DNA of 64,000 nucleotides from a virus (Duplodnaviria > Caudoviricetes): the IMG/VR virus record IMGVR_UViG_3300020434_000055. One strand, 5' to 3'. This document shows positions 3,833 through 58,667 of this stretch, one piece after another. The stretch's first letter is position 1. Every line of letters starts with the position of its first letter. The notes beneath the pieces were generated by a model that saw nothing but the letters and a program-made list of their open reading frames with translations, did no database searches and was not told the origin of the DNA. Both the position numbers and the translations under genes were made by a program.

Positions 3833-4440
3833 TGAATAAAATAATAGCAACAGACTGTGACGGAGTTTTACTTCTCTGGGAAAAAGGTTTTGATGCCTGG
3901 ATGAAAGCAAATGACTTTAAAAAATGGGATAGTGGTCACTATAATATAGATATGAATTATCATCTACCACAAGGTTCTTCTTTACCTTTAATAAAAGTAT
4001 TTAATGAAAGTGCTTGGATGAGAGATTTAGAACCTGTTGAAGGTAGTGTTGAAATAGTAAAAAAATTATCAGAACAAGGATATAAATTTGATGTAATAAC
4101 ATCTCAAACTTTAGATACAAAAGCACAACAATTAAGACGAGAAAACTTAATAAATGTTTTTGGAGATGTGTTTAATGAAATTACATTTTTGGATATGGGA
4201 GCAGGAAAACGAGAAGTCCTGGATCAAAGAATGAAGCAAAAACAGTACAAGCCAGGAACATTTTGGATAGAAGATAAACCAAATAATGCCGAAGATGGGG
4301 CATCTTTGGATTTGAAGTCACTTCTGTTTGACTTACCACACAACAGATGGTATAATAGTAAAGTAACTCCGGTCCAACGAGTTAGTGGTTGGAGCGAGAT
4401 TTATAACGTTATAATTAAGGAGAATAAAAATCATGAGTGA
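3832..4440 (+). CDS. HAD-family 5'(3')-deoxyribonucleotidase-like protein
   Basis: HAD motif I ATDCDGVLL and motif IV WIEDKPNN. Confidence 0.8.
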   Translation: MNKIIATDCDGVLLLWEKGFDAWMKANDFKKWDSGHYNIDMNYHLPQGSSLPLIKVFNESAWMRDLEPVEGSVEIVKKLSEQGYKFDVITSQTLDTKAQQLRRENLINVFGDVFNEITFLDMGAGKREVLDQRMKQKQYKPGTFWIEDKPNNAEDGASLDLKSLLFDLPHNRWYNSKVTPVQRVSGWSEIYNVIIKENKNHE

Positions 4441-4612
4441 AACACACCAACAAATTACTCAAGCCGTTGAAGCTTACGTTAAAGAAAACGAAGCCTTCGA
4501 AACTAAAGGAATTAAAGCCGCGGCGGCTAGAGCCAGAAAGGCCCTGGGAAATTTGGGGAAACTTTCTAAAGCTCGTAGAAAAGAAATACAAGAAAAGAAA
4601 AATTCTATGTAA
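4433..4612 (+). CDS. Histone H1-like (Hc1-family) small basic DNA-binding protein; not in the ORF track
   Basis: AAGGAG SD upstream. Translates to MSETHQQITQAVEAYVKENEAFETKGIKAAAARARKALGNLGKLSKARRKEIQEKKNSM*; the G-x-KAAA-x-RARKA core is typical of the Hc1-like family. Confidence 0.8.
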   Translation: MSETHQQITQAVEAYVKENEAFETKGIKAAAARARKALGNLGKLSKARRKEIQEKKNSM

Positions 4613-4618
4613 TTCATC

Positions 4619-4665
4619 GTTGGCGCGGATCTAATCGATTATCCGTGCCAACAACACCCTTTTTC
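4619..4665 (+). terminator. Probable intrinsic terminator
   Basis: GTTGGCGCGGAT-loop-ATCCGTGCCAAC stem just after the Hc1-like stop; short T-run follows. Confidence 0.6.
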
Positions 4666-4735
4666 AGGAATCCACATAAATAATTCAAGTTACTAATAAT
4701 TAATATAGTAAATATAATAGAAGACAGAATAAAGT

Positions 4736-4948
4736 ATGGCAACAGGCAAAATCAAATGGTTTAATTCCGCTAAAGGTTTCGGATTCATCACACCAGATCA
4801 AGAAGGCAAAGACGTGTTTTTACACGTTTCTGCTTTAAAAGCCTCTAATTTAAGTGACGTTCATGACGGCGACTTAATGGAGTATGAGCTGGTAGAATTC
4901 CGAGGACGACAAGTAGCTGGAAATCTTAAACGCATTGTAGTAGAATAA
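4736..4948 (+). CDS. cspA: Cold-shock protein (CSD RNA chaperone)
   Basis: MATGKIKWFNSAKGFGFI (RNP1) and DVFLHVSAL (RNP2). Confidence 0.95.
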   Translation: MATGKIKWFNSAKGFGFITPDQEGKDVFLHVSALKASNLSDVHDGDLMEYELVEFRGRQVAGNLKRIVVE

Positions 4949-4993
4949 TCATCCCAACATAAAACAGCATATCAAACTGTACCATCGATGTCT

Positions 4994-5022
4994 TTGACAT
5001 ATCAATAAAAAGATGTTATAAA
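4994..5022 (+). promoter_or_regulatory. Sigma70-type promoter of tmRNA gene
   Basis: TTGACA(4994)-17 bp-TATAAA(5017) with TG extended -10. Confidence 0.85.
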
Positions 5023-5028
5023 TATTAC

Positions 5029-5360
5029 TGTAGACGTTGAAGTTTGGGTAATAAATTTCAGGGACGTCGGGGCAGTACCGACCACCTCCACCAAATTCTT
5101 CCGCGTGAAACATTTTAAGGTTTAAGTGTTTAACGGGGGTGAACTAGGATCGACCGGAATGTAAAGACAAATGGAGTCTATCTAGTAGGCACGAAGTAAC
5201 GTCCAATTTATAAATGCATTAGCATTTAAACCTGAAGTGACAGTTCCAGTTAGCATTTTTGCTGACAGAGAACTGGTTGCAGTTTAATACTGCCATTTCG
5301 GAGAAAGGTTAATCTCGGCAACAGAACATAGACCAGCATAGGGGCTTCGGCCCCTATGTT
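5029..5360 (+). ncRNA. ssrA: Circularly permuted (two-piece, alphaproteobacterial-type) tmRNA
   Basis: Acceptor piece ends with T-arm GTCGG-GGCAGTA-CCGAC plus CACCTCC-A-CCA(5093). Intervening segment 5094-5134. Coding piece starts GGGGGTGAACTAGGATCGAC(5135). The 7-bp acceptor stem has a G3.U70 Ala determinant. Resume context ATAAAT-GCA at 5216, tag ORF ends TAA 5287. Outer ends are approximate. Confidence 0.93.
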
Positions 5361-5362
5361 TA
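5336..5362 (+). terminator. Intrinsic terminator after tmRNA
   Basis: GCATAGGGGC-TTCG-GCCCCTATGT-TTATT, a C(UUCG)G tetraloop hairpin. Confidence 0.9.
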
Positions 5363-5427
5363 TTAAACATTCTTATAACTTCTCTTAACATTTAATTTCC
5401 GCTTTAACTTCTCTAAATAATATTCTT

Positions 5428-5688
5428 ATGTTGTATAGTAGAAGAAGAAAAAAGTTAATGAGCAAATTAAAAAAAAATGCTCCAAAAGTTCCAGATCTTA
5501 CTTGCCCAAGTATAGATAGTGCTATCGAACGACTTAAGAAAATATATGAAAAAAATAAACCAATTTCTGATTACCAATGGAAACTTATAGATAAAAGATT
5601 AGAAGTTCTTAGAGAACAAAATGAACTTCTTCGTGAAAGTGGCAAATATTGGTACGAATCCTGCAAAGAACACCTCAAAAAGTCATAA
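5428..5688 (+). CDS. Hypothetical phage protein (coiled coil)
   Basis: Open frame with VPDLTCPSID...LEVLREQNELLRESGKYWY; start codon uncertain. Confidence 0.6.
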   Translation: MLYSRRRKKLMSKLKKNAPKVPDLTCPSIDSAIERLKKIYEKNKPISDYQWKLIDKRLEVLREQNELLRESGKYWYESCKEHLKKS

Positions 5689-5763
5689 AAATCAACACTT
5701 TTTAACTATTGATTTATGTTTCAAAATCTGCTATTATAGTAGTATATAAATATAGTTAATATA

Positions 5764-6516
5764 ATGAAGAAACAAACCCGAGAACAACGGAAGACATCTG
5801 CATCTAAAAGAATAGTTCTTAAAAACCTAAAAAGATGGGCCAATTATTCCATCGCAGTAATAATATTAATAGCAATTTCTTTTTCATATGGAACATTCTT
5901 TCCTAACAAAGTTGTTTCAAACAAACTTTCGTCAACAATGTTTGAAAGCATAAAAAAACATTTTGCTAAAATCAATATTAAACTAGACAAAATAACTATG
6001 CAAAATAAAAAAGATATGGAAGTATCTTTATATTTGGATATTCACCAACCAGAATTTATATATAATGATGCTGATAGCTTCGTTGATGCAGTACGTCAAT
6101 GTGTAGATTATCTTAATTATACAACAGAACTTGAAAAAAGAATTCCTTCATCTATTATAATAGCAATGGCTGGAGTTGAATCAGGTTGGGGAACTTCTAG
6201 ATTTGCAATAGAAGGTAATGCATTATTTGGAGTACGAACTTGGGATCCAAACACACCACAAATGAAACCAAAAAATTTAGACAATATAGATTGGGGTGTT
6301 AAAAAATACAAGCATCAATGCGAAAGTATTCGTGATATGATAGAAATTATTAATAGACATCCTGCTTATAAAGCCTTTAGAGATGAAAGGGCAAAACAAT
6401 TAAAAAATGGTAAATGGGATTACAAAAAATTAATAGCAGGATTAAATGCATGGAGTGAAAATAAAGATTACGACCATCTAATATATAGTACTATATTAGA
6501 TAGAAACCTTCCATAG
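5764..6516 (+). CDS. Membrane-anchored GH73/Bax-like glucosaminidase (peptidoglycan hydrolase)
   Basis: N-terminal TM helix; IIIAMAGVESGWGTSRFAIEGNALFGVRTW catalytic motif. Confidence 0.85.
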   Translation: MKKQTREQRKTSASKRIVLKNLKRWANYSIAVIILIAISFSYGTFFPNKVVSNKLSSTMFESIKKHFAKINIKLDKITMQNKKDMEVSLYLDIHQPEFIYNDADSFVDAVRQCVDYLNYTTELEKRIPSSIIIAMAGVESGWGTSRFAIEGNALFGVRTWDPNTPQMKPKNLDNIDWGVKKYKHQCESIRDMIEIINRHPAYKAFRDERAKQLKNGKWDYKKLIAGLNAWSENKDYDHLIYSTILDRNLP

Positions 6517-11299: not shown

Positions 11300-11954
11300 T
11301 AGTATAATCAATATACCCAAATATTATATTATTAGATTTACTGGTTTAGGATATGAATCAGTAATGGGTATAATAACAAAAAAACAACATGACTATTGGA
11401 AAAGAAAAGGACAACGTAAACTAGGAGAGTATCTAGCAGAGTTGCGTGATATGAATGACTTAGATTATGTTCCTTATGAATCCCAATTAAAATCATCTGA
11501 TTGGTATGATTATGATAGTGTAGCCCACGCCGCCGGTGCCGAACTTAATCCTAAAAATTATTTGACTATAGAAGAAATTGATGGTCCAGACGTTCATACA
11601 GTATTAACTGAAAAATTATCTATTAAAAAATTAGCTAAACGTGGTATTGGTACATTTTGTACAGGAATATTTAATTGTAATATGAGTACATTAAAAGACA
11701 AACATTATTTCCATGGTCAAAGTCACGAACTAGGTACTTGGACTAATGAAGAAAAAATAGTTACTAACGCATTAGGTTTACAATTAGACAAGTTAAAAAT
11801 ACTATATGCAGATGTAGAAGGTAAACAAATAATTCATGGTGTTAGATATATTAAACAACCATACCATATGGAGACAAATAAAGTTACCGGAAAAAGTCTT
11901 AAACTTGGCGTAAAAAGAGGCTGGTATGATATTTTGGCGAATTTAGGCTCTTGA
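11265..11954 (+). CDS. Hypothetical protein
   Basis: Long open frame with phage-like codon use. Confidence 0.6.
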   Translation: MTHQLTRKQLIDSIINIPKYYIIRFTGLGYESVMGIITKKQHDYWKRKGQRKLGEYLAELRDMNDLDYVPYESQLKSSDWYDYDSVAHAAGAELNPKNYLTIEEIDGPDVHTVLTEKLSIKKLAKRGIGTFCTGIFNCNMSTLKDKHYFHGQSHELGTWTNEEKIVTNALGLQLDKLKILYADVEGKQIIHGVRYIKQPYHMETNKVTGKSLKLGVKRGWYDILANLGS

Positions 11955-12000
11955 TTTTTCGCTGAATAATGTTTATATTATAATAGTATGATAAATAACA

Positions 12001-12063
12001 TTGTACGTGATGCTATGATAGGTCTCGTACACATAACTTGCTTAACAAAGGAGGACGATTATG
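12001..12063 (+). promoter_or_regulatory. ROSE-like RNA thermometer in hsp20 5'UTR
   Basis: CTTGCTT-AACA-AAGGAG: the UUGCU motif pairs with SD AGGA leaving a bulged G. Upstream hairpin GTACG...CGTAC (12003-12030). Confidence 0.7.
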
Positions 12064-12507
12064 ACAAATAAAGCCCTATCAATTTTTAATCAACTAAGAC
12101 CCGTTACAATTGGATTTGATAACGTATTCGATCATTTTGAAAGAATGATGGAAGGCGATAACTTTTTCAATGGTGCTGGTGTTAATTACCCACCTTACAA
12201 TATTGTGAAAACAGGTGAAAACACTCACGATATTGAAGTTGCTCTTGCTGGATTCAGTAAGAAAGATATTGATGTAGAGTATAAAGACAATATGCTTACA
12301 ATCAAATCTATCAAAGAATCCAATACTGGCAATCAAAAGGATGGAGTTGTGCATAGAGGAATATCACAAAGATATTTTTCTAAATCTTTTACAATTGCGG
12401 ATGACGTAGAAATAAAAGGTGCAGAACTTAAAGATGGTCTTTTGACAGTTTCTTTGGAAAGAATAATTCCGGAAAGTAAAAAGGCTAAAAAAATAGACAT
12501 TAAGTAA
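12061..12507 (+). CDS. ibpA: Small heat-shock protein Hsp20/IbpA
   Basis: YPPYNIVK, IEVALAGFSKKDI, HRGISQRYFSKSFTIADD, AELKDGLLTVSLERIIPE. Confidence 0.96.
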   Translation: MTNKALSIFNQLRPVTIGFDNVFDHFERMMEGDNFFNGAGVNYPPYNIVKTGENTHDIEVALAGFSKKDIDVEYKDNMLTIKSIKESNTGNQKDGVVHRGISQRYFSKSFTIADDVEIKGAELKDGLLTVSLERIIPESKKAKKIDIK

Positions 12508-12518
12508 TATTAATGGAG

Positions 12519-12565: not shown

Positions 12566-12871
12566 ATGAGCACAGAAATAGAAGTTAAAATAGACGAAAA
12601 AATAAAACAAGTAATTAAAGAACCTGAAAATTACAAGGTTATCTTTTTGAACGATAACGTTACCCCAATGGAATTTGTAATAGATATTTTAATCAAAATA
12701 TTTAAACACACCGCAGAAACGGCTCGTGATCTTACTCTGAAAATCCATAAAGAAGGCTCTATAATTGTTGGACTTTATACATACGAAATAGCAGAACAAA
12801 AAGGTATGGAGGCAACTAACGAAAGTAGGAGTTTAGGATATCCACTTCAGGTTAAGATTGAAAAAGAGTGA
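12566..12871 (+). CDS. clpS: ClpS N-degron adaptor
   Basis: YKVIFLNDNVTPMEFVIDIL...LTLKIHKEGSIIVGLYTYEIAEQK...GYPLQVKIE. Confidence 0.93.
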   Translation: MSTEIEVKIDEKIKQVIKEPENYKVIFLNDNVTPMEFVIDILIKIFKHTAETARDLTLKIHKEGSIIVGLYTYEIAEQKGMEATNESRSLGYPLQVKIEKE

Positions 12872-13491
12872 GCAAATTAAAAGAATTAACGTGGGAACAC
12901 CATAAAAACGCAGAGCGACATGAATTCGCCAAACTTCTAATGAGTGGCAAAATGCCAGAGAAGTTATATGCTACATATCTTTATAATCAACACCCTTGCT
13001 ATGTTATAGTTGAAGCAGTTGGAATGGCATATGGTTTAATGGATGGGGGCTTAAGACGAGCACCTGCAATATGGGACGACTTTAAAGAATTATGGCCAAA
13101 CGTTCCAGATGACGATACTAAAGATTATGAAAAACCATTTATAGCACCTTGCGTAAAAGAATTCCTTGATCATATTCAAAAAATAAAAAGTGATAGAAAA
13201 AAAGTAATGGCCCACATTTATGTTCGTCATATGGCAGATTTAAGTGGAGGTCAAATGATTAGAAAACGTATACCTGGTAAAGGACGTTTATATGATTTTC
13301 CTAAACCAATTGACGAAATGAAAGCTGATGTAAGAAAAAATTTAAGTGATGATATGGCAGATGAGGCAATAATAGCTTTTGGCTTTGCCACTAAATTATT
13401 CAAAGAATTAAGTACACAAATTTATAATGAAGATAATAGAAATACTACAAATGATCCTTTTAAAGGAACAGTTATAGAAGGAAAAGATTAA
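12868..13491 (+). CDS. ho1: Heme oxygenase
   Basis: LKELTWEHHKNAE (proximal His helix); AHIYVRHMADLSGGQMIRK distal helix. Confidence 0.9.
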   Translation: MSKLKELTWEHHKNAERHEFAKLLMSGKMPEKLYATYLYNQHPCYVIVEAVGMAYGLMDGGLRRAPAIWDDFKELWPNVPDDDTKDYEKPFIAPCVKEFLDHIQKIKSDRKKVMAHIYVRHMADLSGGQMIRKRIPGKGRLYDFPKPIDEMKADVRKNLSDDMADEAIIAFGFATKLFKELSTQIYNEDNRNTTNDPFKGTVIEGKD

Positions 13492-13697
13492 TGACATCTT
13501 TATCTAAAATAAGACATAGACAAAAGTTTGAAGAAGCACCCAAAAATGATTTTACTGGAAATATGATAAGGGTTAATATTCTTAAAGAAGAAATAGCACA
13601 TCTTAAAACATTACTTCAACCAACGGACACTGGACATATTCATACTGCAATATCTGTCTTGGAAGACCGAATAAAAGAATTAGAAAATGAAAAATGA
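13491..13697 (+). CDS. Small hypothetical protein within the HO-FDBR cassette
   Basis: Coupled at both ends; LQPTDTGHIHTAISVLEDRIKEL. Confidence 0.65.
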   Translation: MTSLSKIRHRQKFEEAPKNDFTGNMIRVNILKEEIAHLKTLLQPTDTGHIHTAISVLEDRIKELENEK

Positions 13698-14394
13698 GTC
13701 TTTTATTTGGAATAAACTTATAGAGTGTCAAAATCAAATACTAAAAGAGTTTAATACTAGAGGTACAGAAATAACTGAACCTGGTATGGATCATTTTAAC
13801 CAACCTGAAAATGGTTGGATGAATAGAGTATGGCAAACTGAAAATTGTAGACGTTGTCATATAGATGTAGTAGATGCTAGAGATACAAAAGCTCTTTGGA
13901 TGATGCACGTATGTGTTTTTCCTAATCTTGATAATGATGGTCCTATATATGGCTTTGATGTTATTGCAGGTAAAAATAAAATGACTGGAGCCTTCCATGA
14001 TTTTTCAGCATCTTCTGGAGGAGAAAAACATCCTTTAGTAGACTGGTATAAAGATGCAGTAGCAGATTATATACCTAGCAAAAAAAGAGTATTACCTGAA
14101 TGGGCAAAAAATATATTTTCAAGTAGTATGATTGCCGCGGGTAATGTTAGAACAGATGAAGAAGCAACTGCAATAGTTGATTTAGCAATTAGCAATCTTA
14201 AAACTTATTTTGACAGTATAGGACAATACTCAGGTAAAGCACTTAAAGAAAATACAATAAAAGCACAAAATTACTATTGTAATAATCAAACACAAAATCC
14301 ACATACACCCAGAGTAATGTTGTCTTTAGGACTAAACGAAAAAGACGTTAAAAAGTTTTGTACAGACATATTATTTCCTAAAATAAGCCAATAA
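13687..14394 (+). CDS. pcyX: Ferredoxin-dependent bilin reductase, PcyX/PcyA-like
   Basis: CHIDVVDAR, WMMHVCVFP, PIYGFDVIAG, AFHDFS and YYCNNQTQNPHTPRVM match FDBR family motifs; next to heme oxygenase. Confidence 0.82.
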   Translation: MKNESFIWNKLIECQNQILKEFNTRGTEITEPGMDHFNQPENGWMNRVWQTENCRRCHIDVVDARDTKALWMMHVCVFPNLDNDGPIYGFDVIAGKNKMTGAFHDFSASSGGEKHPLVDWYKDAVADYIPSKKRVLPEWAKNIFSSSMIAAGNVRTDEEATAIVDLAISNLKTYFDSIGQYSGKALKENTIKAQNYYCNNQTQNPHTPRVMLSLGLNEKDVKKFCTDILFPKISQ

Positions 14395-15914: not shown

Positions 15915-16112
15915 ATGGAAGTAGAAGTTCGAAATAATAACGTAGACAAGGCAATGCGTATCCTTAAGAAGAAAATGAAAAAGGAAGGTCTTTTTGATTT
16001 AATGAAGGATAAACAGTATTACCAAAAGCCTAGTTTTAAAAGACGAGAAAAGAAAAAAAGAAGACTCGTGAATATCAAGAAAGCGGAAAAATTAAGAAGT
16101 AATTTCATTTAG
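15915..16112 (+). CDS. rpsU: Ribosomal protein bS21
   Basis: [25 protein letters not shown]...[17 protein letters not shown]. Confidence 0.93.
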
Positions 16113-16601: not shown

Positions 16602-17651
16602 ATGAAAAACGTTGGAATAATTGGCGTTGGTAAAATTGGTAGAACGATTGCCGCCTTTTTAAATAAAAAACCCGAAATATTTAAAGTTCATTTAGCAGAT
16701 ATAAATCCATGGGATAAAGATGAATCTATTATAAAAATAGATGCGTCTGATATAAACGAGTGTAAAAGATTTATAGGTGGCAAAGATATAATAATTACAT
16801 CTACTACTCATGACGTTAATATTAATATTGCAAAATCGTGTGCTGAATTAGGAGTAGCATATTTTGATTTAACAGAAGATACAGAAGTTTCAGAGTATAT
16901 TAAAAATTTAGATACAAAAACATTTATGATGCCACAATGTGGATTGGCGCCTGGGGCAGTTAATATTATTGCCGCAAATTTAATCAGTCAATTTGAAGAA
17001 CCACATAAAGTTAAAATGAGAGTTGGAGCATTACCTAAATATCCTACCAATGCAATGTCTTATTATCTTACTTGGTCAACTGATGGTTTACTTAATGAAT
17101 ATGTAAATTATTGTGATGTCATTTCCCATTACGATCATATTAAAGCACATCCACTAGATGGTATAGAATCAATTTATATAGATGGAAATAGATATGAAGC
17201 ATTTAACACATCAGGAGGTAGTGCTTCTATGTGTGAAACATATAAAGACAAAGTTAGAACATTATCATATAAAACTATTAGGTATCCAGGACATTGTGAT
17301 AAAATGAAATTTTTATTAGAAGATTTAAATTTAAAACATAACAAACAAAAATTTATAGAATTATTTGATCAAGAAGTTCCTTATACAACTGCAGATGTTG
17401 TAGTAATGCTTGTATCTGTAATTGGTAAAAAAGATGGCAAATTACAAGAAGTTACATATTCAAATAAAATATATGGCGACACAGATTTTAGTGCCATCCA
17501 AAGAGCAACTGCTTCTGGTGTATGTGCTGTCGTTTTAGCATATGCTACAGGAAAACTTACAGGTACAGGATATATCAAACAGGAGAACATACCACATAAA
17601 GATTTTATAACTAATTTATACGGAGAAATATACAATGGCAGAGCTACTTAA
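16602..17651 (+). CDS. Saccharopine dehydrogenase family / lysine 6-dehydrogenase-like
   Basis: GIIGVGKIG Rossmann motif, QCGLAPG, TWSTDGLLNEY, EAFNTSGG, YKTIRYPGH. Confidence 0.88.
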   Translation: MKNVGIIGVGKIGRTIAAFLNKKPEIFKVHLADINPWDKDESIIKIDASDINECKRFIGGKDIIITSTTHDVNINIAKSCAELGVAYFDLTEDTEVSEYIKNLDTKTFMMPQCGLAPGAVNIIAANLISQFEEPHKVKMRVGALPKYPTNAMSYYLTWSTDGLLNEYVNYCDVISHYDHIKAHPLDGIESIYIDGNRYEAFNTSGGSASMCETYKDKVRTLSYKTIRYPGHCDKMKFLLEDLNLKHNKQKFIELFDQEVPYTTADVVVMLVSVIGKKDGKLQEVTYSNKIYGDTDFSAIQRATASGVCAVVLAYATGKLTGTGYIKQENIPHKDFITNLYGEIYNGRAT

Positions 17652-19071
17652 AGAAGGTTATAATTTATTAGTTGAAAAATCTACTGACGCCCAAAAAGGT
17701 TGGCTAAAAGTTCCAGCACCTAAACGTGGAGAATTAATTAGAATATTTGGTAACAAATTAAGAGAACACTTACAAGAACTAGGTAAAGGTGTTACTATGG
17801 AAAGTAAAAAAATTTTAGTTGAAGGAGTTGGAGAAGTCCAAGAAGTAATTGATATGTGTGATTTTGCAGTAGGGTTATCAAGACAACTATATGGATTAAC
17901 AATGCCTTCTGAAAGGCCTGATCACAGATTACAAGAAATGTGGCATCCATTAGGTGTAGTAGGTGTTATTACGGCTTTTAATTTTCCAGTAGCGCCATGG
18001 GGTTGGAATTTTTGTTTAGCAATAGTGTGTGGCGATAGTGTTGTATGGAAACCATCTCCTAAAACAATGAAAATATCATACAGATGTAAAGAATTATTTG
18101 ATGATGCAGTTAAAGATTTTAAAAGCAAATATGTTGAAAGTTTAGGAATAGATGTAAAAAATTTATTATTAATATTAGAAGGAGATAAAGAACAAGCAGA
18201 ATGGATGGCTGATGATCCTAATATAAAATTATTAAGTGCAACAGGATCATGTGAAATGGGTAAATCATTAGCACCTAAGGTTTCTGCAAGAATGGGTAAA
18301 GGTTTATATGAACTAGGTGGCAATAATGCAATGATAGTAACTAATAATGCAAATTTTGAATTAGCCGTAAGAGCAATTATTTTTAGTGCTATTGGTACAA
18401 CCGGTCAAAGATGTACTTCTTTAAGAAGACTTTTTGTACAAAAAAATAGTTACGATTCTATGAAAGGTATGCTACATAGAGCATATTCAGGAATTGACCC
18501 TGGTCATCCATTGGACAACGGTGTTTTATTAGGCCCATTAATTGATGAAAAAGCATTTAAAAAAATGCAATCTGTTTTACATAAATGTCGACAAAAAGGA
18601 TACATGGTTTATGGTGGAGATCCACATGAAGAATGTAATAAATTAAATCCGGATCATCCGTATTACGTTTACCCAGCTATTGTTCATGCTGATTTTCATT
18701 CTGAAATGGTTAAAGAAGAAACATTTGCTCCTATCCTTTATATGTTAAAATATGATAAACTAGAAAATGCAATTAAAATGCAAAATGATGTACCTCAAGG
18801 ATTAAGTTCTTGCATTTTTACAGAAAATTTAAGAGAAGCTGAAACATTTATATCTTCAGTTGGTTCTGATTGCGGAATTGTAAATGTTAATATAGGACCA
18901 TCAGGTGCAGAAATAGGTGGAGCATTTGGTGGAGAAAAAGATACAGGTGGTGGCAGAGAATCTGGATCTGATGCTTGGAAATCTTATATGAGAAGAACTA
19001 CAGTTACAATTAATTATGGTAGAAAATTACCTTTAGCACAAGGTATAACTTTTGCATCTGATAAAAAATAA
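17635..19071 (+). CDS. ALDH7 family aldehyde dehydrogenase (alpha-aminoadipate semialdehyde / P6C dehydrogenase)
   Basis: EGVGEVQEVIDMCDFAVGLSRQLYG, ITAFNFPVA, ELGGNNA, catalytic GQRCT, GGRESGSDAWKSYMRR. Confidence 0.92.
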   Translation: MAELLKEGYNLLVEKSTDAQKGWLKVPAPKRGELIRIFGNKLREHLQELGKGVTMESKKILVEGVGEVQEVIDMCDFAVGLSRQLYGLTMPSERPDHRLQEMWHPLGVVGVITAFNFPVAPWGWNFCLAIVCGDSVVWKPSPKTMKISYRCKELFDDAVKDFKSKYVESLGIDVKNLLLILEGDKEQAEWMADDPNIKLLSATGSCEMGKSLAPKVSARMGKGLYELGGNNAMIVTNNANFELAVRAIIFSAIGTTGQRCTSLRRLFVQKNSYDSMKGMLHRAYSGIDPGHPLDNGVLLGPLIDEKAFKKMQSVLHKCRQKGYMVYGGDPHEECNKLNPDHPYYVYPAIVHADFHSEMVKEETFAPILYMLKYDKLENAIKMQNDVPQGLSSCIFTENLREAETFISSVGSDCGIVNVNIGPSGAEIGGAFGGEKDTGGGRESGSDAWKSYMRRTTVTINYGRKLPLAQGITFASDKK

Positions 19072-36541: not shown

Positions 36542-36549
36542 GATAGATT

Positions 36550-47523: not shown

Positions 47524-47922
47524 ATGTTCGAACGCCAGAACAATCTTAAAATCTATAAAGGCAAAATAACACCTATCCATGACAGAGTTTTAGTTTCTGA
47601 CATGGATTTCGGGGATCAAAAAACCAAAGGTGGACTTATTATTGCAAGTGACGACGGACATACTCGAGGTATCAAACCTAGATGGTGTAAAGTAGTTTCT
47701 AAAGGTCACAAAAATAAAGACACATACAAAGAAGGAGACTGGATCTTAGTCGAACACGGACGATGGTCAAGGGGTCTCCATTTTGAAAGTAAAAACGGAA
47801 AAGTCAAAGTTCTTCGAATTGTTGAAGCCAAAGCAGTAATGATGACTGGCAATTATAAACCAAAAGATTGGTACCAAGCCAGATTAAAATATAGCCCTGC
47901 CGGCGAACTCCTAGAAAAATAA
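47524..47922 (+). CDS. groES: Co-chaperonin GroES-like (gp31 analogue)
   Basis: PIHDRVLV, QKTKGGLIIASDDG mobile loop, CKVVSKG, EGDWILVEHG. Confidence 0.8.
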   Translation: MFERQNNLKIYKGKITPIHDRVLVSDMDFGDQKTKGGLIIASDDGHTRGIKPRWCKVVSKGHKNKDTYKEGDWILVEHGRWSRGLHFESKNGKVKVLRIVEAKAVMMTGNYKPKDWYQARLKYSPAGELLEK

Positions 47923-49047: not shown

Positions 49048-50397
49048 ATGTGCGGAATAGTTGGAATATATAATGTTCCAGAGGCTTCTAAAATTGCAGT
49101 ACTCGGAATTCATGCTTTGCAACACCGAGGTCAAGAAGGAGCTGGTATTATTTCATACGATAATGACTTTCATTTTCAAAATTCTTACGGTTTAGTTGAT
49201 CATATTTTTAGTAAAAACAGAATTATAGAAAATCTACCAGGTAATATGGCAATAGGCCACGTTAGATACAGTACTACTGGTGGTACAGGTAAAAATAATG
49301 TTCAACCTTTATTTTATAATTTAGACTTTGGTGGTTTTGCTATTTCTCATAACGGAGATTTTACTGATTCAGTATATTGGCGAGACAAATTAAGAAAAGA
49401 TGGTGCAATATTTCAAACATCTACCGATACAGAAATTATTCCACATTTATTGGCCCGTACAAAAGGAACAGATCCTATTAATCGTTTACTTAAGGTATTA
49501 AATCAAGTAAATGGTGCATTTAGTATAGTGGCTTTGCTTAATAACAAGTTAATTGTTGCACGAGATACTCATGGCTTTCGTCCATTAGTTATAGGTCGTT
49601 ATAAACAAGGTTATGCAGTAGCATCTGAGAGCTGTTCTCTTGATTTAATTGGTGCAACAAATATTAAAGACGTTGACCCCGGAGAAGTACTTGTATTTGA
49701 AGATGAAAAAAAGAAAATTTATCATTTAGACAATAAAATTACAAAAAATTTTTGTATATTTGAACACGTATATTTTTCTAGACCTGATTCTATTATAGAT
49801 GACCAATTAGTATATGACGTTCGTAAAAGAATAGGTGAACAATTAGCAAAAGAAACTTATATTGATTCTGATATGGTTGTTCCTGTACCTGATTCAGGTT
49901 TAATATCTGCACTTGGATATGCTAAACAATCAAAAATTCCTTTTGAATTTGGACTTACGCGAAGTCACTACGTAGGAAGAACATTTATTCAACCCACTCA
50001 AACAATACGAGACTTAGGTGTAAAATTAAAACATAGTGCTATGCGATTATTTGAAGATAAAACAGTTACCGTTATTGATGATTCTATTGTTCGAGGAACT
50101 ACAGCAAAAAAAATTATAAAAATGATAAGAAAAGCAGGTGCTAAAAAAATTCATATGCGTATTGCATCTCCACCGGTTACTGGTCCATGTTGGTATGGTA
50201 TAGATACACCAAATAGACAAGAACTTATAGCTGGAACCAGTAGTGAAAAAGAAATTAAAGAATTTATAACGGCTGATTCACTAAAATACATATCAGTAGA
50301 AGGATTACATAAAGCAGTAAAAGGTAAAGGTTACTGTGATGCTTGTTTTAGTGGCAAATATCCTATTAATAAAAGGACTGAATTACATGAACGTTAA
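49048..50397 (+). CDS. purF: Amidophosphoribosyltransferase
   Basis: MCGIVG Ntn Cys, LQHRGQEGAGI, GHVRYST, CIFEHVYFSRPDS, PVPDSG, VIDDSIVRGTT, YCDACFSGKYP. Confidence 0.97.
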   Translation: MCGIVGIYNVPEASKIAVLGIHALQHRGQEGAGIISYDNDFHFQNSYGLVDHIFSKNRIIENLPGNMAIGHVRYSTTGGTGKNNVQPLFYNLDFGGFAISHNGDFTDSVYWRDKLRKDGAIFQTSTDTEIIPHLLARTKGTDPINRLLKVLNQVNGAFSIVALLNNKLIVARDTHGFRPLVIGRYKQGYAVASESCSLDLIGATNIKDVDPGEVLVFEDEKKKIYHLDNKITKNFCIFEHVYFSRPDSIIDDQLVYDVRKRIGEQLAKETYIDSDMVVPVPDSGLISALGYAKQSKIPFEFGLTRSHYVGRTFIQPTQTIRDLGVKLKHSAMRLFEDKTVTVIDDSIVRGTTAKKIIKMIRKAGAKKIHMRIASPPVTGPCWYGIDTPNRQELIAGTSSEKEIKEFITADSLKYISVEGLHKAVKGKGYCDACFSGKYPINKRTELHER

Positions 50398-51013
50398 ATT
50401 AATTGATAAAATGGGTACTGACCTAACAGTAGTAAATGCCGCTAGGGTTTCTTATGCAAAAACTAAAGAACAATTTGAAGATAAAGACGAAAAACTAATT
50501 GCATTTTTGGCTAAACATAATCATTGGTCACCGTTTGGACACGCATCACTACAATTTAGAATAAAAGCACCTGTGTTTGTTGCAAGACAACTTGTTAAGC
50601 ATCAAGTTGGACTAATATGGAATGAAGTTAGTAGACGTTATGTAGATTATCCACCTGAATTGTTTAATCCAGAGTCATGGAGAGGTCGTCCTATTAATTC
50701 TAAACAAGGTTCTGCTGGTGAAGTTAAACTTGATAGAACATTACAACATCTTTATTCAACTGCTATGGAACAATGTAAAATTTTATACCATGCTTTGATC
50801 GGAAAAAACATCGCACCCGAACAAGCACGAATGGTATTACCTCAATCAATGATGACTGAATGGTATTGGTCAGGAAGTTTATATGCATTTGCTAGAGTAT
50901 GCAATTTAAGATGTAAACCTGACGTACAAAAAGAAACTAGAGAGGTTTGTGAGCAAATTTCTACAGAATGCGGTAAGTACTTTCCTATTAGTTGGAAATA
51001 TTTGAGAAATTAA
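50387..51013 (+). CDS. thyX: Flavin-dependent thymidylate synthase
   Basis: VVNAARVSY, HNHWSPF, ARQLVKHQVGLIWNEVSRRY, EQARMVLPQ, HVQ-type PDVQKETR. Confidence 0.95.
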   Translation: MNVKLIDKMGTDLTVVNAARVSYAKTKEQFEDKDEKLIAFLAKHNHWSPFGHASLQFRIKAPVFVARQLVKHQVGLIWNEVSRRYVDYPPELFNPESWRGRPINSKQGSAGEVKLDRTLQHLYSTAMEQCKILYHALIGKNIAPEQARMVLPQSMMTEWYWSGSLYAFARVCNLRCKPDVQKETREVCEQISTECGKYFPISWKYLRN

Positions 51014-51336: not shown

Positions 51337-51443
51337 TGTTAGAAGAATGGATAATAAGAATTATACTTGTTATTCTAGGAAGTATAGCATTGTTGGTTTT
51401 GATACAATTAATTGTCAATATAGTCACCGGTGTTTATGTATAA
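51336..51443 (+). CDS. Tiny membrane peptide; not in the ORF track
   Basis: MLEEWIIRIILVILGSIALLVLIQLIVNIVTGVYV*, GGAG SD, TAATG coupling. Confidence 0.5.
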   Translation: MLEEWIIRIILVILGSIALLVLIQLIVNIVTGVYV

Positions 51444-51750
51444 AGCAAGTCACATACTAGTAAGCCATTCAGAAGCAGTAAGTTCTACAAGAACAATGTG
51501 TAGGGAAGAAGCATTGTTTTTAGCAGGTGCAATTAGTGAAGAAATAAGAACAGGCAAGTATACTTTTGATCAAGCCGCAAAAATTTATAGTGATTGTCCT
51601 AGTGGACAGGCAAACAGTGGAAATTTAGGAACTTTTCCAGCCAATAGAATGGATAAAGATTTTATAACATATTTAGATAACTTAAAACCTGGTGAAACTA
51701 GTGGTCCTTGCCCTACTATATATGGTTTTCACCTTATAAGAAGAAACTAA
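51436..51750 (+). CDS. ppiC: Parvulin-type peptidyl-prolyl isomerase
   Basis: KASHILVSH, FDQAAKIYSDCPSG...GNLGTF...MDKDF, PTIYGFHLI. Confidence 0.9.
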   Translation: MYKASHILVSHSEAVSSTRTMCREEALFLAGAISEEIRTGKYTFDQAAKIYSDCPSGQANSGNLGTFPANRMDKDFITYLDNLKPGETSGPCPTIYGFHLIRRN

Positions 51751-51782: not shown

Positions 51783-52313
51783 ATGCAAGATACAGTAGAT
51801 GTTATAAAAACAGTTCAAAATGTGTTTGACAATGACACCGCTTTCACGGTACTCAAGGACTTTGAAAGAGTACTTGATGAATTAGACCTTTATGTATATG
51901 ATAATTGGGAAAATGGTGAATTAGCATCAGGTCCAAACATTAAAAGACACTTTGTATCATGCACTTTTATGTGGGATCGAGATAAAATGCCAGATCCTAC
52001 AGGTGGTCAAAGATTAACTGATTACGATTGCAAAGTATATTACAAAAAAGATCAATTTGTTTTTCCTAGACAAATAATAGAGCCTGGAGATATGCGAACA
52101 GGAACTAAAAAAGGTAAAATGGATAAAAGACCTATATGGTTAGTAGAAATTATGATGCCTAAAGAATTAATCCGAAGCATATACAGTGGTTATGAAGCAG
52201 AAACTGACTACTCTAAAGACCCAGCAACAGCAGAAGAAATTCCAGTAGATCAAAATATAGATGCTGGTATAGAACCAGTAGCAGAACCCGATGCTCCTGA
52301 AGGAGAAATTTAA
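51783..52313 (+). CDS. Conserved hypothetical late protein
   Basis: LKDFERVLDELDLYVYDNWENGELASGP...FMW...MPDPTGGQRL; late promoter at 51757. Confidence 0.7.
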   Translation: MQDTVDVIKTVQNVFDNDTAFTVLKDFERVLDELDLYVYDNWENGELASGPNIKRHFVSCTFMWDRDKMPDPTGGQRLTDYDCKVYYKKDQFVFPRQIIEPGDMRTGTKKGKMDKRPIWLVEIMMPKELIRSIYSGYEAETDYSKDPATAEEIPVDQNIDAGIEPVAEPDAPEGEI

Positions 52314-53041
52314 TGGGTTTAAAAAAAGACGATTTAGCACATACTACTGATAGTATATTTGAAATCGATTCCTATAAATCAAAAATGGGAGACGATAAAG
52401 ATATTGTAGTTCTTAGTTTTACAGTTCTAGGAGAACAACCAGCAATAGATTTAGTAAATTTTATAGAAAAAGGATACGATTACGTTTTAGATGCTGACAA
52501 AACTAGCGGAGAACAAGCTGATGGCAAATATAGAGTGTTTGTTGAATTAGAAAGAAACAATAAAATTTCAAATCAAATTACAGAAATACTAGGTGGTGTC
52601 GGAAAACTAGCAAATTTAGAAAATTTTAAATTTAGATACTATAAAAATTTTAAAAGTTTACCAGCAGATGAAAAAACTTTAGGAGAAGTTGTTCCTTTTG
52701 ATTCTGACGCTTATGAAATTAAAATAGGTGAGGCTCCTATGGAGAATTATAAAAATTTCTTTCATGATAGTTATGTAGATGACGTAATTATGGAAGATAC
52801 AACATTAATTCTTAAAAAGCAACGTCATGATCCATTATTTTTCGAATTTTTGGAATATGGCAATAAAGAAGATGTCTTAAAATCAATAAAAGAGTCATAT
52901 CAGATTAATAAATTCCCAGAAGTAATTTTTTTAAGTAAGTATATAGGAGATTATAATATATCCATTTATGGTAACAAGTATGTTCTTGAAAGCAAGAACT
53001 TCTGTATAGTACTTAAGAAAAAATATGAGACTATCAACTAA
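52313..53041 (+). CDS. Conserved hypothetical late protein
   Basis: FEIDSYKSKMGDDKDIVVLSF...FIEKGYDYVLDAD...YRVFVELER. Confidence 0.7.
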   Translation: MGLKKDDLAHTTDSIFEIDSYKSKMGDDKDIVVLSFTVLGEQPAIDLVNFIEKGYDYVLDADKTSGEQADGKYRVFVELERNNKISNQITEILGGVGKLANLENFKFRYYKNFKSLPADEKTLGEVVPFDSDAYEIKIGEAPMENYKNFFHDSYVDDVIMEDTTLILKKQRHDPLFFEFLEYGNKEDVLKSIKESYQINKFPEVIFLSKYIGDYNISIYGNKYVLESKNFCIVLKKKYETIN

Positions 53042-55071: not shown

Positions 55072-55923
55072 ATGGCAGACTATTATGATATATTAGGGGT
55101 TAAAAAAGGCGCTTCCCAACAAGATTTAAAAAAAGCATATAAAAAACAAGCGATGAGATATCATCCAGACAAGGGTGGAGACTCTAATAAATTTCAAAAA
55201 ATAAACGAAGCATACGATACACTTAAAGACCCTCAAAAGAAAGCCATGTATGACCAATTTGGTGCTACTGGTAATCAAGGACCTTATTCAAGAACATATT
55301 CAACTGAAGAGTTTGAATTTCCTAATGACATAGGAGATATTTTTAATCAATTCTTTGGTGGATCAAGATCACCGTTTACTCAAAGAAGACAAAGACAAAG
55401 AAATAAAGACATAGCAATTCAAACTCAAATAGATTTAGAAGATGTAATGAATGGTAAATCATTAATTGCAACATATACACTAACAAATGGTAAGCAACAG
55501 AGTGTAAACATTGATTTACCTCCGGGAGTAGAAACAAATACCACGATGAAATTTACAGGACTAGGAGATAATTTCATTCCAAGTATTTCTAGAGGTGATT
55601 TAATGGTAAGAATTAAAGTACGATCTCATTCAAGATGGCATAGAGATGGTGCAAATTTACATTGCGTAGAAAAAGTAAGTGTGTTTGATTTATTATTAGG
55701 AACTAAAAAGGAAATAACAACTGTAGATGGTAAAAAATTATCTATTACCATCCCTAAAGGATGTCAACCAGGTACAGTATTAAGTATTAGTGAACAAGGA
55801 CTACCAAGATTGCATGGCAGAGGCAAAGGTAACATCTATATGACAGTTCAAGCCGATATACCTAACATATCTGATCCAGAAATGTTAAAGCTTCTTCAAA
55901 GGATAAAATATGGAACTAATTAA
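55072..55923 (+). CDS. dnaJ: DnaJ-class II co-chaperone (CbpA-like, no Zn finger)
   Basis: DYYDILGV...YHPDKGG J-domain; G/F region; C-terminal domain with GDLMVRI and GLPRL..RGKGN. Confidence 0.93.
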   Translation: MADYYDILGVKKGASQQDLKKAYKKQAMRYHPDKGGDSNKFQKINEAYDTLKDPQKKAMYDQFGATGNQGPYSRTYSTEEFEFPNDIGDIFNQFFGGSRSPFTQRRQRQRNKDIAIQTQIDLEDVMNGKSLIATYTLTNGKQQSVNIDLPPGVETNTTMKFTGLGDNFIPSISRGDLMVRIKVRSHSRWHRDGANLHCVEKVSVFDLLLGTKKEITTVDGKKLSITIPKGCQPGTVLSISEQGLPRLHGRGKGNIYMTVQADIPNISDPEMLKLLQRIKYGTN

Positions 55924-56428
55924 ACACCCAAATGAATGGTTAGAGAAAAAAATAAAACCTTTCGACTGGGAAAATTTAGATTCAGAAAAAATTGAACAAG
56001 AAATGGTCTCTATTATGGAGGATAATAAAGGTATAGGTCTGGCGGCAAATCAAGTTGGGTTAGATGCAAGAGTTGTAACAATATTGCCAAAAAATATAAA
56101 AGGAATTACTAAATCTTTTGCAATTATTGATCCTACAATAGAACAAATAAGTCTTAATAAAATTGAAGATGTTGAAGGATGTCTTAGTTTTCCAAAATTA
56201 TGGTTAAAAGTTAGAAGACCAGACAAGGTTACTGTAAAATTTCTTGACAGTAAACAAAAAGAGTGTATAATGGACTTTAGTGGTTATGATGCAAGATGTT
56301 TTCTTCACGAATATGATCATCTGGAAGGAATAACGTTCGTGAGTCCTTTACGAGTTAGCAAATTAAGATTAGATATGGCAATAAAAAGACAACAAAAAAT
56401 AATAAAAGAGGAACAACAAAATGGTTGA
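55910..56428 (+). CDS. def: Peptide deformylase
   Basis: GIGLAANQVG, EGCLSFP, HEYDHLEG. Confidence 0.96.
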   Translation: MELIKHPNEWLEKKIKPFDWENLDSEKIEQEMVSIMEDNKGIGLAANQVGLDARVVTILPKNIKGITKSFAIIDPTIEQISLNKIEDVEGCLSFPKLWLKVRRPDKVTVKFLDSKQKECIMDFSGYDARCFLHEYDHLEGITFVSPLRVSKLRLDMAIKRQQKIIKEEQQNG

Positions 56429-58667
56429 GCCTAGCCAAGAACTCCAATTAGTTTTTGATAAAGCAGTTATAGATGCTAAAAAATTAAAGCATGAATATGT
56501 AACTGTTGAACACTTATTATTTGCAATGCTATGCACTGATAAATTTTCAAATATGATTAAAGGATTCGGTGCAGATGTTGACGATTTAAAAACAGAAGTA
56601 GAAAATTATCTTAAAACTAAATTAAAAACTATAACACTTGAAAATATTTCAAAATATAAACCAAAAAAGACAACAAGTGTAGAAAGAATTCTAAATAGAG
56701 CATTTACCCAAGTATTATTCAGTGGTAGAAGCCATATAGACATCTCAGACGTGTTTCTTAGCATGATGAGTGAAAAGAAAAGCTGGGCTTATTACTTTAT
56801 AATGAAGACCGAAATAAGCAAAGACAAGTTTCAAGACTATCTACACGCCGAAATGGAATCATTATATGAAGATGAAGTTGATCAATCCGCGGCAAAAAGA
56901 GCATTAGGTCTTTATACTACAAATTTAAACAATGAAGTTAAAAAAGAAAGAATAGATCCAGTTATAGGAAGAGTAGAAGAATTAAATTCTATAGCTTTAT
57001 CCTTAGGTAGAAGAACTAAAAATAATGTAATCCTAGTAGGAGATCCAGGTGTAGGAAAAACTGCTATTGCAGAAGGATTAGCATTTAATATTGAAAAGAA
57101 TACTTGTCCTGATTTTTTAAAAGAATATAAAGTGTATAATTTAGACATTGGTGGAATGTTAGCTGGTTCTAAATATAGAGGAGATTTTGAAGAAAGATTT
57201 AAACTTGTATTATCTGCTTTAAAAAAGAAAGGCAAAACAATTTGTTTTATAGATGAAGCACATAATATAAGTGGTGCAGGAGCAGGCGGAACTACAAATA
57301 GTAATGATTTAGCTAATTTATTAAAACCTGTATTAACTAAAGGTGATCTTAAAGTTGTAGCATCAACTACTTGGGAAGATTATAGAAAATATTTTGAAAA
57401 AGACAGAGCTCTAATGAGAAGATTTCAAAGAATTGTAATTGATGAACCAGATAAAGATACTACAGTTAAAATATTACACGGACTTAGAAAATACTATGAA
57501 AATTTTCATAATATTGCAATTACAGATCAAGCAATTAAAGAAGCAGTTAAAACTAGTGTCAAATATCAAACTGATAAAAAATTACCTGACAAAGCAATTG
57601 ATTTAATAGACTTGGCGTGTAGTAGATTTAATCTTAAAGACCCTACTGCTGAAAAAGTAATAGGTCAAGAAGAAATACAATATGAAGTAGCAAAAGCTGT
57701 GAAAATGCCTGTTGAAAACATTCAACAAAAAGAGTCTTCAGCACTTGCTAATTTAGATAAGAATATGAAGAGTGGTGTATTTGGACAAGACAAAGCAATA
57801 GAGTCTGTTATTGATAAAATTATGGTGGCACACGCAGGATTAAAAAGAGAAAACAAACCAATAGGATCATTTGTGTTCATGGGCCCAACAGGTTGTGGTA
57901 AAACAGAAACAGCAAAACAACTTGCAAATCATTTAGGTGTTAAATTAGTCAGATTTGATATGTCAGAGTATCAAGAAAAACACGCAGTATCAAAACTAAT
58001 TGGATCTCCTCCAGGATATGTTGGATTTGAAGAAAATACAGGATTGCTTATAACAAAATTACAAGAACATCCTAATTGCGTATTGCTATTAGATGAAATA
58101 GAAAAAGCACACCCTGATGTTAGTCAAATATTACTTCAAATAATGGATGAAGGAACTGTTATGGGTAATAATGGTAAAGAAGCAGACTGTAAAAATGTTA
58201 CATTAATTTTAACTACTAATTTAGGTGCAGATCAATTAGATAAAAACGTAATGGGATTCACTGACTCCTCATCTACTAGTGAATATGACGATAAAGAAAT
58301 GAAAAAGTTCTTTCCACCAGAATTTAGAAACAGATTAGACGGAACTATTGTATTCCAAAAATTATCAAAAGAAACTCTAATAAAAATTGTTGGTAAGTTT
58401 ATGCTAGAGCTTAGATTGATGTTAAAAGACAAAGATACAGTACTAGAATTAACTGATGAAGCTATTGACTACCTAGTAGACAAAGGATATGATGATAAAA
58501 TGGGTGCTAGACCTATGCAAAGACTAATTGACAATGACATTAAAAGACCTCTATCCAAAGAATTGCTATTTGGTAAGTTAAAAAATGGTGGTAAAGCTAA
58601 AATTGACTCAAAAGATAAGGGTATTACTATCATCTACGAAGAAGCAGTGAAACTAATCAAAAGTTAA
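56421..58667 (+). CDS. clpA: ClpA AAA+ unfoldase
   Basis: Clp N-domain (HEYVTVEHLLFAM), two NBDs (GDPGVGKT, GPTGCGKT), no ClpB coiled coil, KNVMGF ClpP-docking loop, MGARPMQR. Confidence 0.95.
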   Translation: MVEPSQELQLVFDKAVIDAKKLKHEYVTVEHLLFAMLCTDKFSNMIKGFGADVDDLKTEVENYLKTKLKTITLENISKYKPKKTTSVERILNRAFTQVLFSGRSHIDISDVFLSMMSEKKSWAYYFIMKTEISKDKFQDYLHAEMESLYEDEVDQSAAKRALGLYTTNLNNEVKKERIDPVIGRVEELNSIALSLGRRTKNNVILVGDPGVGKTAIAEGLAFNIEKNTCPDFLKEYKVYNLDIGGMLAGSKYRGDFEERFKLVLSALKKKGKTICFIDEAHNISGAGAGGTTNSNDLANLLKPVLTKGDLKVVASTTWEDYRKYFEKDRALMRRFQRIVIDEPDKDTTVKILHGLRKYYENFHNIAITDQAIKEAVKTSVKYQTDKKLPDKAIDLIDLACSRFNLKDPTAEKVIGQEEIQYEVAKAVKMPVENIQQKESSALANLDKNMKSGVFGQDKAIESVIDKIMVAHAGLKRENKPIGSFVFMGPTGCGKTETAKQLANHLGVKLVRFDMSEYQEKHAVSKLIGSPPGYVGFEENTGLLITKLQEHPNCVLLLDEIEKAHPDVSQILLQIMDEGTVMGNNGKEADCKNVTLILTTNLGADQLDKNVMGFTDSSSTSEYDDKEMKKFFPPEFRNRLDGTIVFQKLSKETLIKIVGKFMLELRLMLKDKDTVLELTDEAIDYLVDKGYDDKMGARPMQRLIDNDIKRPLSKELLFGKLKNGGKAKIDSKDKGITIIYEEAVKLIKS

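Follow-up and report, generated by a model that had tools for sequence, protein, structure and literature searches.

Dispersed translation and protein-quality-control genes of a marine jumbo myophage

Sets of ClpA, ClpS, ClpP, ClpX, DnaJ, DnaK, Hsp20 and Hsp10 genes are already known from phages (PMC6102473; PMC7824862; PMC12619734). A Clp/chaperone set has been catalogued in Atu_ph07 (PMC6102473), and a survey of jumbo phages listed ClpP, ClpS, ClpA/ClpX, DnaJ, Hsp20, Hsp10 and MoxR-vWA as recurrent in its group 2.2, with peptide deformylase (PDF) and ribosomal protein S21 unmentioned (PMC7824862). Moraphages, which have predicted Bacteroidota hosts and genomes of up to 307 kb, carry a core ClpA with DnaJ, DnaK and Hsp20, plus T4-like structural genes; transfer-messenger RNA (tmRNA), PDF and S21 are unmentioned (PMC12619734). 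In marine myophages, PDF and bS21 are core genes of the pelagimyophages (PMC7029224), and two-piece tmRNAs of alpha type occur in the OM43 phage Melnitz and related phages (PMC9004378). Here, we examine a stretch of 64,000 nucleotides (the window) from the IMG/VR virus record IMGVR_UViG_3300020434_000055, which carries genes of both kinds: tmRNA, bS21, PDF, ClpS, ClpA, Hsp20, DnaJ, a GroES-like protein, a parvulin and CspA.

A sequence-only reading had taken these ten features for one coordinated and perhaps undescribed system. All ten are present within a few bases of where they had been placed, and each exceeds its curated threshold, Pfam, Rfam and NCBIfam matches being judged against curated cut-offs or gathering scores. 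The toolkit is probably a vertically inherited and physically dispersed assembly of translation and protein-quality-control genes held in small conserved units, with partners and a purpose that we infer; directly observed are the genes themselves, together with motifs, conservation and synteny. As a system it is not new, since comparable toolkits are listed in the three studies cited first; every component class had earlier been reported in phages, and current views stand. Less ordinary are a frozen, non-canonical tmRNA tag, a divergent ClpP, bS21/Hsp20/ClpS and DnaJ-ClpA units shared across phage families, and likely hosts that are poor in ClpA and ClpS. The ten features of the window are as follows.

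4736..4948, + strand: cspA, cold-shock domain protein (Pfam CSD, 67 bits versus 27), directly upstream of the tmRNA gene
5029..5360, + strand: permuted two-piece tmRNA gene (Rfam RF04321 and RF01849)
12061..12507, + strand: hsp20, IbpA-like small heat-shock protein (Pfam HSP20, 66 bits versus 20.8)
12566..12871, + strand: clpS, ClpA adaptor (Pfam ClpS, 95 bits versus 23)
15915..16112, + strand: rpsU-like gene, ribosomal protein bS21 (Pfam, 52.5 bits versus 27)
47524..47922, + strand: GroES/gp31-like co-chaperonin (Pfam Cpn10, 30.7 bits versus 21.1)
51430/51436..51750, + strand: parvulin-type peptidyl-prolyl isomerase (Pfam Rotamase, 68 bits versus 21.7)
55045/55072..55923, + strand: dnaJ, class B J-domain protein (Pfam J domain, 81 bits; C-terminal domain DnaJ_C, 115 bits)
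55910..56428, + strand: def, peptide deformylase (Pfam, 136 bits versus 22.8)
56421..58667, + strand: clpA, double-ring AAA+ unfoldase with N-domain (Pfam Clp_N, two AAA modules, ClpB_D2-small)

Arrangement of the toolkit and its retention in relatives

Co-occurrence was surveyed in three distant relatives (50-100% complete, with ClpA 46-69% identical to that of the window): G001, an IMG/VR contig of 357,559 bp that is 100% complete by CheckV and syntenic with the window over ~120 kb; G002, of 180 kb; and G072, a contig of 306,714 bp, 87% complete, whose ClpA is 46% identical. All three retain tmRNA, bS21, PDF, ClpS, ClpA, Hsp20, DnaJ, the GroES-like gene and a ClpP-family gene, nine or more members each. 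Within the clade the set is thus more than scatter and not due to chance, a pattern other than the scattered gains that would have spoken against the sequence-only reading. G001 has its tmRNA beside cspA, together with bS21, Hsp20-ClpS, the GroES-like gene, DnaJ-ClpA and a canonical ClpP, with PDF at another locus; G072 has bS21-Hsp20-ClpS, DnaJ-PDF-ClpA, the GroES-like gene, CspA, a ClpP-like gene and a permuted tmRNA. Not every member is constant in the clade: PDF, parvulin and DnaK vary. The parvulin is a variable accessory, found in only 11 of 33 related loci spanning its interval and not in G001, G002 or G072, and DnaK is present in G074 and not in G072.

The members lie at 4.7, 5.0, 12, 16, 47.5, 51.4 and 55-58.7 kb with unrelated genes between them, that is, in at least five places over 54 kb, amid nucleotide-metabolism, pigment and virion genes. 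The only contiguous members are those of hsp20-clpS and dnaJ-def-clpA. In the latter, def shares 14 nt with dnaJ and 8 nt with clpA; all 75 informative IMG/VR loci have dnaJ directly before clpA, with def between the two in 38. Likewise, hsp20 adjoins clpS in the window, G001, G002, G072 and the Pseudomonas phage PA5oct and is one gene away from it in Atu_ph07, and bS21 is encoded in the last five of these, each time 0.5 to 3.7 kb from clpS. The 3' end of clpS overlaps a heme oxygenase gene (12868-13491) by 4 nt, followed by a 68-residue open reading frame (ORF) and a ferredoxin-dependent bilin reductase (FDBR; PcyX/PebS-like, 13687-14394); the order hsp20-clpS-hemO-FDBR is retained in contig L007, G001 and G002. 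Right after bS21 stands a row of saccharopine-dehydrogenase-like, aldehyde dehydrogenase and Asp/Asn beta-hydroxylase-like genes (16602-19697), which has no counterpart at that place in G001, where the canonical ClpP sits.

ClpP, SmpB, DnaK and GroEL are absent from the window, as had been claimed (ORF list; tblastn for ClpP). Genes outside it were reached by walking public metagenome contigs (ENA/Tara Oceans) via exact protein identity, each link being at least 99.8% DNA-identical to the window or to the preceding link. Three of these genes belong to the subject.

L283, in the stretch 3477-6027, ~41 kb upstream, opposite strand: DnaK, 639 residues (1006 bits versus 648)
L285:864-1235, ~9.5 kb past the window end: ribosomal protein bL12 (TIGR00855, 107 bits versus 84)
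L285:11037-11591, ~24 kb downstream of clpA: ClpP-family peptidase with a Ser-His-Asp triad

The bL12 gene, just upstream of a family B DNA polymerase, adds a second ribosomal protein to bS21 and was not found in G001, G002 or G072. A MoxR-type AAA ATPase gene followed by one for a DUF2201 protein is likewise carried by the same population outside the window. After dnaK, the L283 stretch encodes an N-terminal piece of a CTP synthase (154 residues), then a ferredoxin and a staphylococcal-nuclease-like protein.

These genes bear on the claim that the phage borrows its catalytic cores from the host. Searches of G001-G005, of which G001 is complete, found no SmpB, GroEL or HSP70, and for SmpB and GroEL the claim is plausible; for DnaK and ClpP it is not supported, a DnaK and a ClpP-family peptidase being encoded by the same population. 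The phage would plausibly depend on its host for SmpB and GroEL, without being limited to selectivity parts. T4, too, depends on GroEL.

We consider a single coordinated system of all ten genes quite improbable. In it, the phage would give the parts that confer selectivity and drive host ClpP, SmpB, DnaK and GroEL, thereby redirecting rescue, folding and destruction. Co-occurrence in three distant relatives would suit such a system, as would the failure to find SmpB and GroEL, the ClpP-docking tripeptide retained in ClpA and a tag strongly unlike those of candidate hosts (both described below). However, the genes are dispersed, two of the supposed host cores are encoded by the phage population and canonical ClpP by relatives, and some members vary within the clade. 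Moreover, subsets are distributed differently elsewhere: neither PDF nor tmRNA was found above threshold in PA5oct or Atu_ph07, pelagimyophages have PDF and S21, and ClpA is unmentioned for pelagimyophages and Melnitz, some of which have a two-piece tmRNA (PMC7029224; PMC9004378). The ten-gene list is a union of an old jumbo-phage Clp/Hsp20/S21/DnaJ core, a marine-myophage translation set and variable extras.

The window, of ~32% G+C and with nearly all genes on the + strand and tightly spaced or overlapping, comes from a large marine T4-like/Rak2-like jumbo myophage with relatives of 307-358 kb. Its genome size is roughly 350 kb, and its clade is very large, mostly marine and uncultured. ClpA relatives occur on at least 598 IMG/VR contigs, the best 80 being 64-76% identical; a megablast of clpA against GenBank phages returned nothing close. 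Phage-type genes of the window include ribonucleotide reductase, DNA ligase, clamp loader and ThyX, and several others match PHROG virion structural protein families. The region 29430-41870 encodes a 2298-residue protein whose sole match is to T4 gp9/10 at its N-terminus, a 1183-residue protein with six repeats of the baseplate-wedge/tail-fibre connector family, and a subtilase S8. Between 48133 and 51013 come, in this order, genes for a gp44-like clamp loader, a purF-like glutamine amidophosphoribosyltransferase (49048-50397) and ThyX (50336-51013). Contigs L275, L278 and L281, 18-36 kb before the window, encode CsgG, CsgF, a CHASE2 adenylate/guanylate cyclase, FecR-domain proteins, a TolC-like OEP, an AprE-type membrane-fusion protein and an uncharacterised protein of 1326 residues; genes for AdoMet decarboxylase, porphobilinogen deaminase and coproporphyrinogen oxidase lie still farther upstream.

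Clp proteins, chaperones and the probable host

ClpA matches its E. coli counterpart (1KSF; 652 bits) over the full length and retains both Walker A/B pairs (GVGKT/DE and GCGKT/DE) and the KYR and GYVG pore loops. In its D2 ring, V-M-G-F stands opposite E. coli S-I-G-L, so that the ClpP-docking tripeptide is MGF where E. coli has IGL. The protein scores 867 bits against TIGR02639 (ClpA), under the cut-off of 993, in what is still by far its best family. ClpS keeps the ClpA-contact residues Glu, Glu and Lys at E. coli positions 79, 82 and 84 by alignment. Of its N-degron pocket (E. coli Asn34, Asp36, Thr38, Met40 and His66), Asn, Thr, Met and His are retained, and the Asp36 position is occupied by Asn in the window, by Glu in G001 and G002, and by Asp in SAR11.

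Among the other proteins, PDF has intact metal and active-site motifs (GIGLAANQ, EGCLS and HEYDH) and scores 115 bits against TIGR00079 (cut-off 104), and bS21 scores 56 bits against TIGR00030 (cut-off 29). Hsp20 reaches 103 bits with NCBIfam IbpA, under its cut-off. In DnaJ, HPD stands at residue 40 and the CxxCxGxG zinc-finger motif is missing, which makes the protein class B (CbpA-like) and not class A. The GroES-like protein, which has copies 40-59% identical in G001-G005 and G072, matches nothing in NCBIfam; its best PHROG is 931, 'head morphogenesis' (51 bits), ahead of PHROG 3188, 'co-chaperonin GroES' (29 bits). Head morphogenesis is the role of T4 gp31.

Some of these features would fit another explanation, in which DnaJ-ClpA, Hsp20, the gp31-like protein, the parvulin and MoxR serve mainly as chaperones of virion morphogenesis, with the translation genes as unrelated auxiliaries and ClpA acting as an unfoldase, translocase or disaggregase for huge capsid, tail and ejection proteins and not in degradation or rescue. 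The dnaJ-def-clpA unit stands between PHROG virion structural matches (51783-53041 and, weakly, 58695-59045); DnaJ-ClpA of PA5oct is flanked by structural proteins confirmed by mass spectrometry; a tail-fibre gene lies downstream in Atu_ph07 and a gp15-like gene beside ClpA in phage 121Q; the best match of the GroES-like protein points the same way, and an assembly role has been proposed (PMC7824862). We nevertheless judge this explanation unlikely. ClpA keeps the ClpP-docking tripeptide, which is absent from pure disaggregases such as ClpB; it is accompanied by a conserved, dedicated N-degron adaptor whose pocket is largely intact; and every 50-100% complete relative examined has a ClpP-family gene.

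That gene, one per genome, is either canonical, as in G001 (266 bits) and G002 (217 bits), or divergent, as in the population of the window. The divergent protein occurs on 394 IMG/VR contigs (the best 80 being 70-88% identical), and its Ser, His and Asp align with the canonical ClpP triad. On L285 it lies in a DNA-modification-like and replication cluster, with genes for Gfo/Idh/MocA, alcohol dehydrogenase (ADH), phosphoribosyltransferase (PRTase), HIT and GTP cyclohydrolase I as neighbours. A prohead protease was considered for this gene and found unlikely, given its 88 bits to ClpP versus 60 to the ClpP-related head-maturation family and given these neighbours.

SAR11 is the probable host, or else some other alphaproteobacterium with a streamlined genome. 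The lead to SAR11 comes from DnaK, whose closest relatives among ~186,000 species genomes are in Pelagibacteraceae (72-74% identity, versus 67-71% for other Alphaproteobacteria); the alpha-type tmRNA, the low G+C, the Tara Oceans contigs and the upstream CsgGF agree with it. A cyanobacterial host, suggested by Hsp20, PDF, hemO and the bilin reductase, was rejected on the nearest relatives of DnaK and the alpha type of the tmRNA. Among 61 Pelagibacteraceae genomes (G008-G071), ClpS was found in 23 and ClpA in exactly those 23, adjacent to it; neither was found in the other 38, among them a complete genome of 1.38 Mb and the five that had been drawn from the top DnaK hits. ClpP (52 of 61) and SmpB (51 of 61), both near-universal, calibrate detection in these partly incomplete genomes. 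ClpB-like hits occur in only five, all among the 23 with ClpA. With only 43-47% identity to their SAR11 counterparts, the phage ClpA and ClpS have not been captured recently. Should the host be a SAR11 without ClpA, the phage would add a capability rather than re-aim one; candidate SAR11 hosts being mostly without ClpA, ClpS and ClpB, it may bring proteolytic or unfolding capacity with it.

The permuted tmRNA and its tag

The tmRNA gene matches Rfam tmRNA_permuted (RF04321) over 5031-5287 with 74 bits (gathering score 47; model positions 1-213) and alpha_tmRNA (RF01849) with 81 bits versus 50. ARAGORN called no tmRNA in the window, which probably reflects the odd tag. Read from the sequence, a promoter-like TTGACA-17-TATAAA site at 4994-5022 precedes the gene; the acceptor piece runs to a CCA at 5093, 41 nt of spacer (5094-5134) separate it from the coding piece, which opens with GGGGG at 5135, and a GC hairpin with a T run lies at ~5338-5365. 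The tag ORF occupies 5216-5284, with a GCA resume codon at 5216 and a TAA stop at 5285-5287, and encodes ALAFKPEVTVPVSIFADRELVAV; the remaining two frames meet stops within 3-5 codons. This tag is 23 residues long and ends in L-V-A-V, outside the canonical (A/V/I/L)-A-A degron. Its VAV ending is the most unusual single feature found here.

Identity of the 332-nt gene to its copies in 10 relatives is 98-100%, against 80-90% in the flanks. Only two changes fall in the tag ORF, both at synonymous third positions, which leaves the tag invariant in 11 sequences, and the terminator stem shows a compensatory change. No other Val-ending tag was seen among ~80 other viral permuted tmRNAs, nearly all of which end in Ala-Ala; the nearest tags are long and end in ...DSELLAA and ...DRELLAA. 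The distant relatives have canonical ALAA tags, namely ...NDNNFALAA in G001, ANDNYAPETALAA in G002 and ANNNYQPEMALAA in G072, and those of candidate hosts (ANESYALAA, ANESYAIAA and ANNKFALAA) have 9 residues and LAA or IAA ends.

Such a tag might have left the host ClpXP degron and be read instead by phage ClpA, with or without ClpS, and the divergent ClpP-like peptidase. If true, the virus would install an orthogonal tagging-and-degradation channel in a host mostly without ClpA and ClpS. The invariance of the tag between more variable flanks, its solitary Val ending, its unlikeness to candidate host tags and the lack of ClpA and ClpS in the candidate hosts nearest by DnaK could all be accommodated in this way. 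We nonetheless hold it to be highly improbable: a required pairing of tag and ClpA is not indicated, because G001, G002 and G072 combine the same Clp set with ordinary tags and evidently need no special one, and the hydrophobic VAV end may be an ordinary degron for several proteases.

The adjacency of cspA and the tmRNA gene is retained in 10 close relatives and in G001. Contigs from several marine RNA libraries match cspA and the tmRNA (window 4700-5400) and hsp20 (11840-12510) with few or no differences, and most neighbouring bins have no matches; they stem from this phage or close relatives and likely fit transcription of the three genes, without proving it. Many IMG/VR tmRNA loci have nrdAB or thyX neighbours, as in the window, and ThyX homologues adjoin permuted tmRNA genes in many other viral contigs.

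Proposed roles and comparison with known systems

Under the reading that we prefer, that of an inherited and dispersed toolkit, three units may be distinguished. The first would be cspA-ssrA, of early type, with its own promoter-like site and terminator; the second, hsp20-clpS coupled to hemO-pcyX, with bS21 nearby; and the third, the overlapping dnaJ-def-clpA operon amid virion genes. The gp31/GroES-like gene and the parvulin would be singletons, and the ClpP-family peptidase, DnaK, bL12 and the MoxR pair would join from outside the window. During infection, the tmRNA could, with host SmpB, free ribosomes stalled on damaged or truncated mRNAs, while bS21, bL12, PDF and CspA would sustain translation and nascent-chain processing. 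DnaK/DnaJ, Hsp20, the GroES-like protein (with host GroEL) and the parvulin may fold a very large virion proteome, and ClpA-ClpS, with the phage ClpP-like peptidase or host ClpP, would add an unfoldase and N-degron route absent in most candidate hosts.

Several observations weigh against this proposal. Conservation within the clade amounts to a single inheritance event and is no proof of functional coupling. With 88 bits, the divergent ClpP-family protein falls short of the NCBIfam ClpP cut-offs (228-249). It shares 31% identity with the canonical ClpP found in G001 and G002, and in the alignment its N-terminal axial-loop region is missing, so that it may be unable to dock ClpA. RNA libraries can hold DNA. 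Scans for sigma-70 promoters and terminators gave counts not above those of shuffled controls (61 versus 57 and 66 versus 62), and because sigma-70-like sites are no commoner than in shuffled sequence, transcription units are deduced from gene overlap and spacing only. Finally, the margin of SAR11 DnaK over that of other Alphaproteobacteria is a few percent identity only.

With regard to the bacterial ClpAPS and SsrA-SmpB pathways of E. coli and Caulobacter, the phage proteins match in domain architecture, catalytic motifs and adaptor-unfoldase contacts, and the tmRNA has the two-piece architecture of Alphaproteobacteria. In contrast, no SmpB was found in the window or in G001-G005, the ClpP is divergent and without axial loops, ClpS has Asn for Asp36, and the tag has 23 residues and a VAV end. 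Similarly, clpS and clpA are adjacent in SAR11 and E. coli, whereas in the phage they are not.

The pelagimyophages and Melnitz resemble the phage of the window as marine T4-like phages with PDF, bS21, an Asp/Asn hydroxylase in the core and curli CsgGF, and their two-piece tmRNA of alpha type adjoins thyX or nucleotide-metabolism genes (PMC7029224; PMC9004378). They differ in their genomes of ~130-170 kb, in the absence of any mention of ClpA, ClpS or ClpP in these two studies and in their tags, which are canonical and AA-ending where read. Moraphages, compared by published gene content alone, share the ClpA core, DnaJ/DnaK/Hsp20 and T4-like structural genes. In phage 121Q, ClpA is present; bS21, PDF and tmRNA were not found, no DnaJ is annotated beside ClpA, and the phage is not among the ClpS hits. 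These hits comprise 22 GenBank phage records, most of them PA5oct-type phages, Atu_ph07, Phosso and others that also top the ClpA list.

A likeness in arrangement is shown by two culturable jumbo phages. Atu_ph07 (Agrobacterium; Polybotosvirus) has adjacent DnaJ-ClpA in identical order and orientation, with ClpA ~40% identical, and Hsp20-tk (thymidine kinase)-ClpS with a bS21-like ORF ~2.6 kb away; it also encodes ClpP. It differs in its extra ClpX and ClpB, its genome of 490 kb and its soil habitat; the host is an alphaproteobacterium. PA5oct (Pseudomonas; Arenbergviridae), with ClpA ~42% identical, has DnaJ-ClpA beside structural genes, 20 kb from a ClpX-bS21-x-x-Hsp20-ClpS cluster; it differs in its nearby FtsH-related genes and its gammaproteobacterial host. 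Nothing usable on the expression timing of the PA5oct Clp genes was found in the literature. The window shows to what extent a giant phage that probably infects the most abundant, genome-streamlined bacteria of the ocean can bring its own ribosome-rescue and protein-quality-control genes. The bS21/Hsp20/ClpS neighbourhood and DnaJ-ClpA that it has in common with PA5oct and Atu_ph07, two culturable systems, point to an old proteostasis core of one jumbo-phage supergroup.

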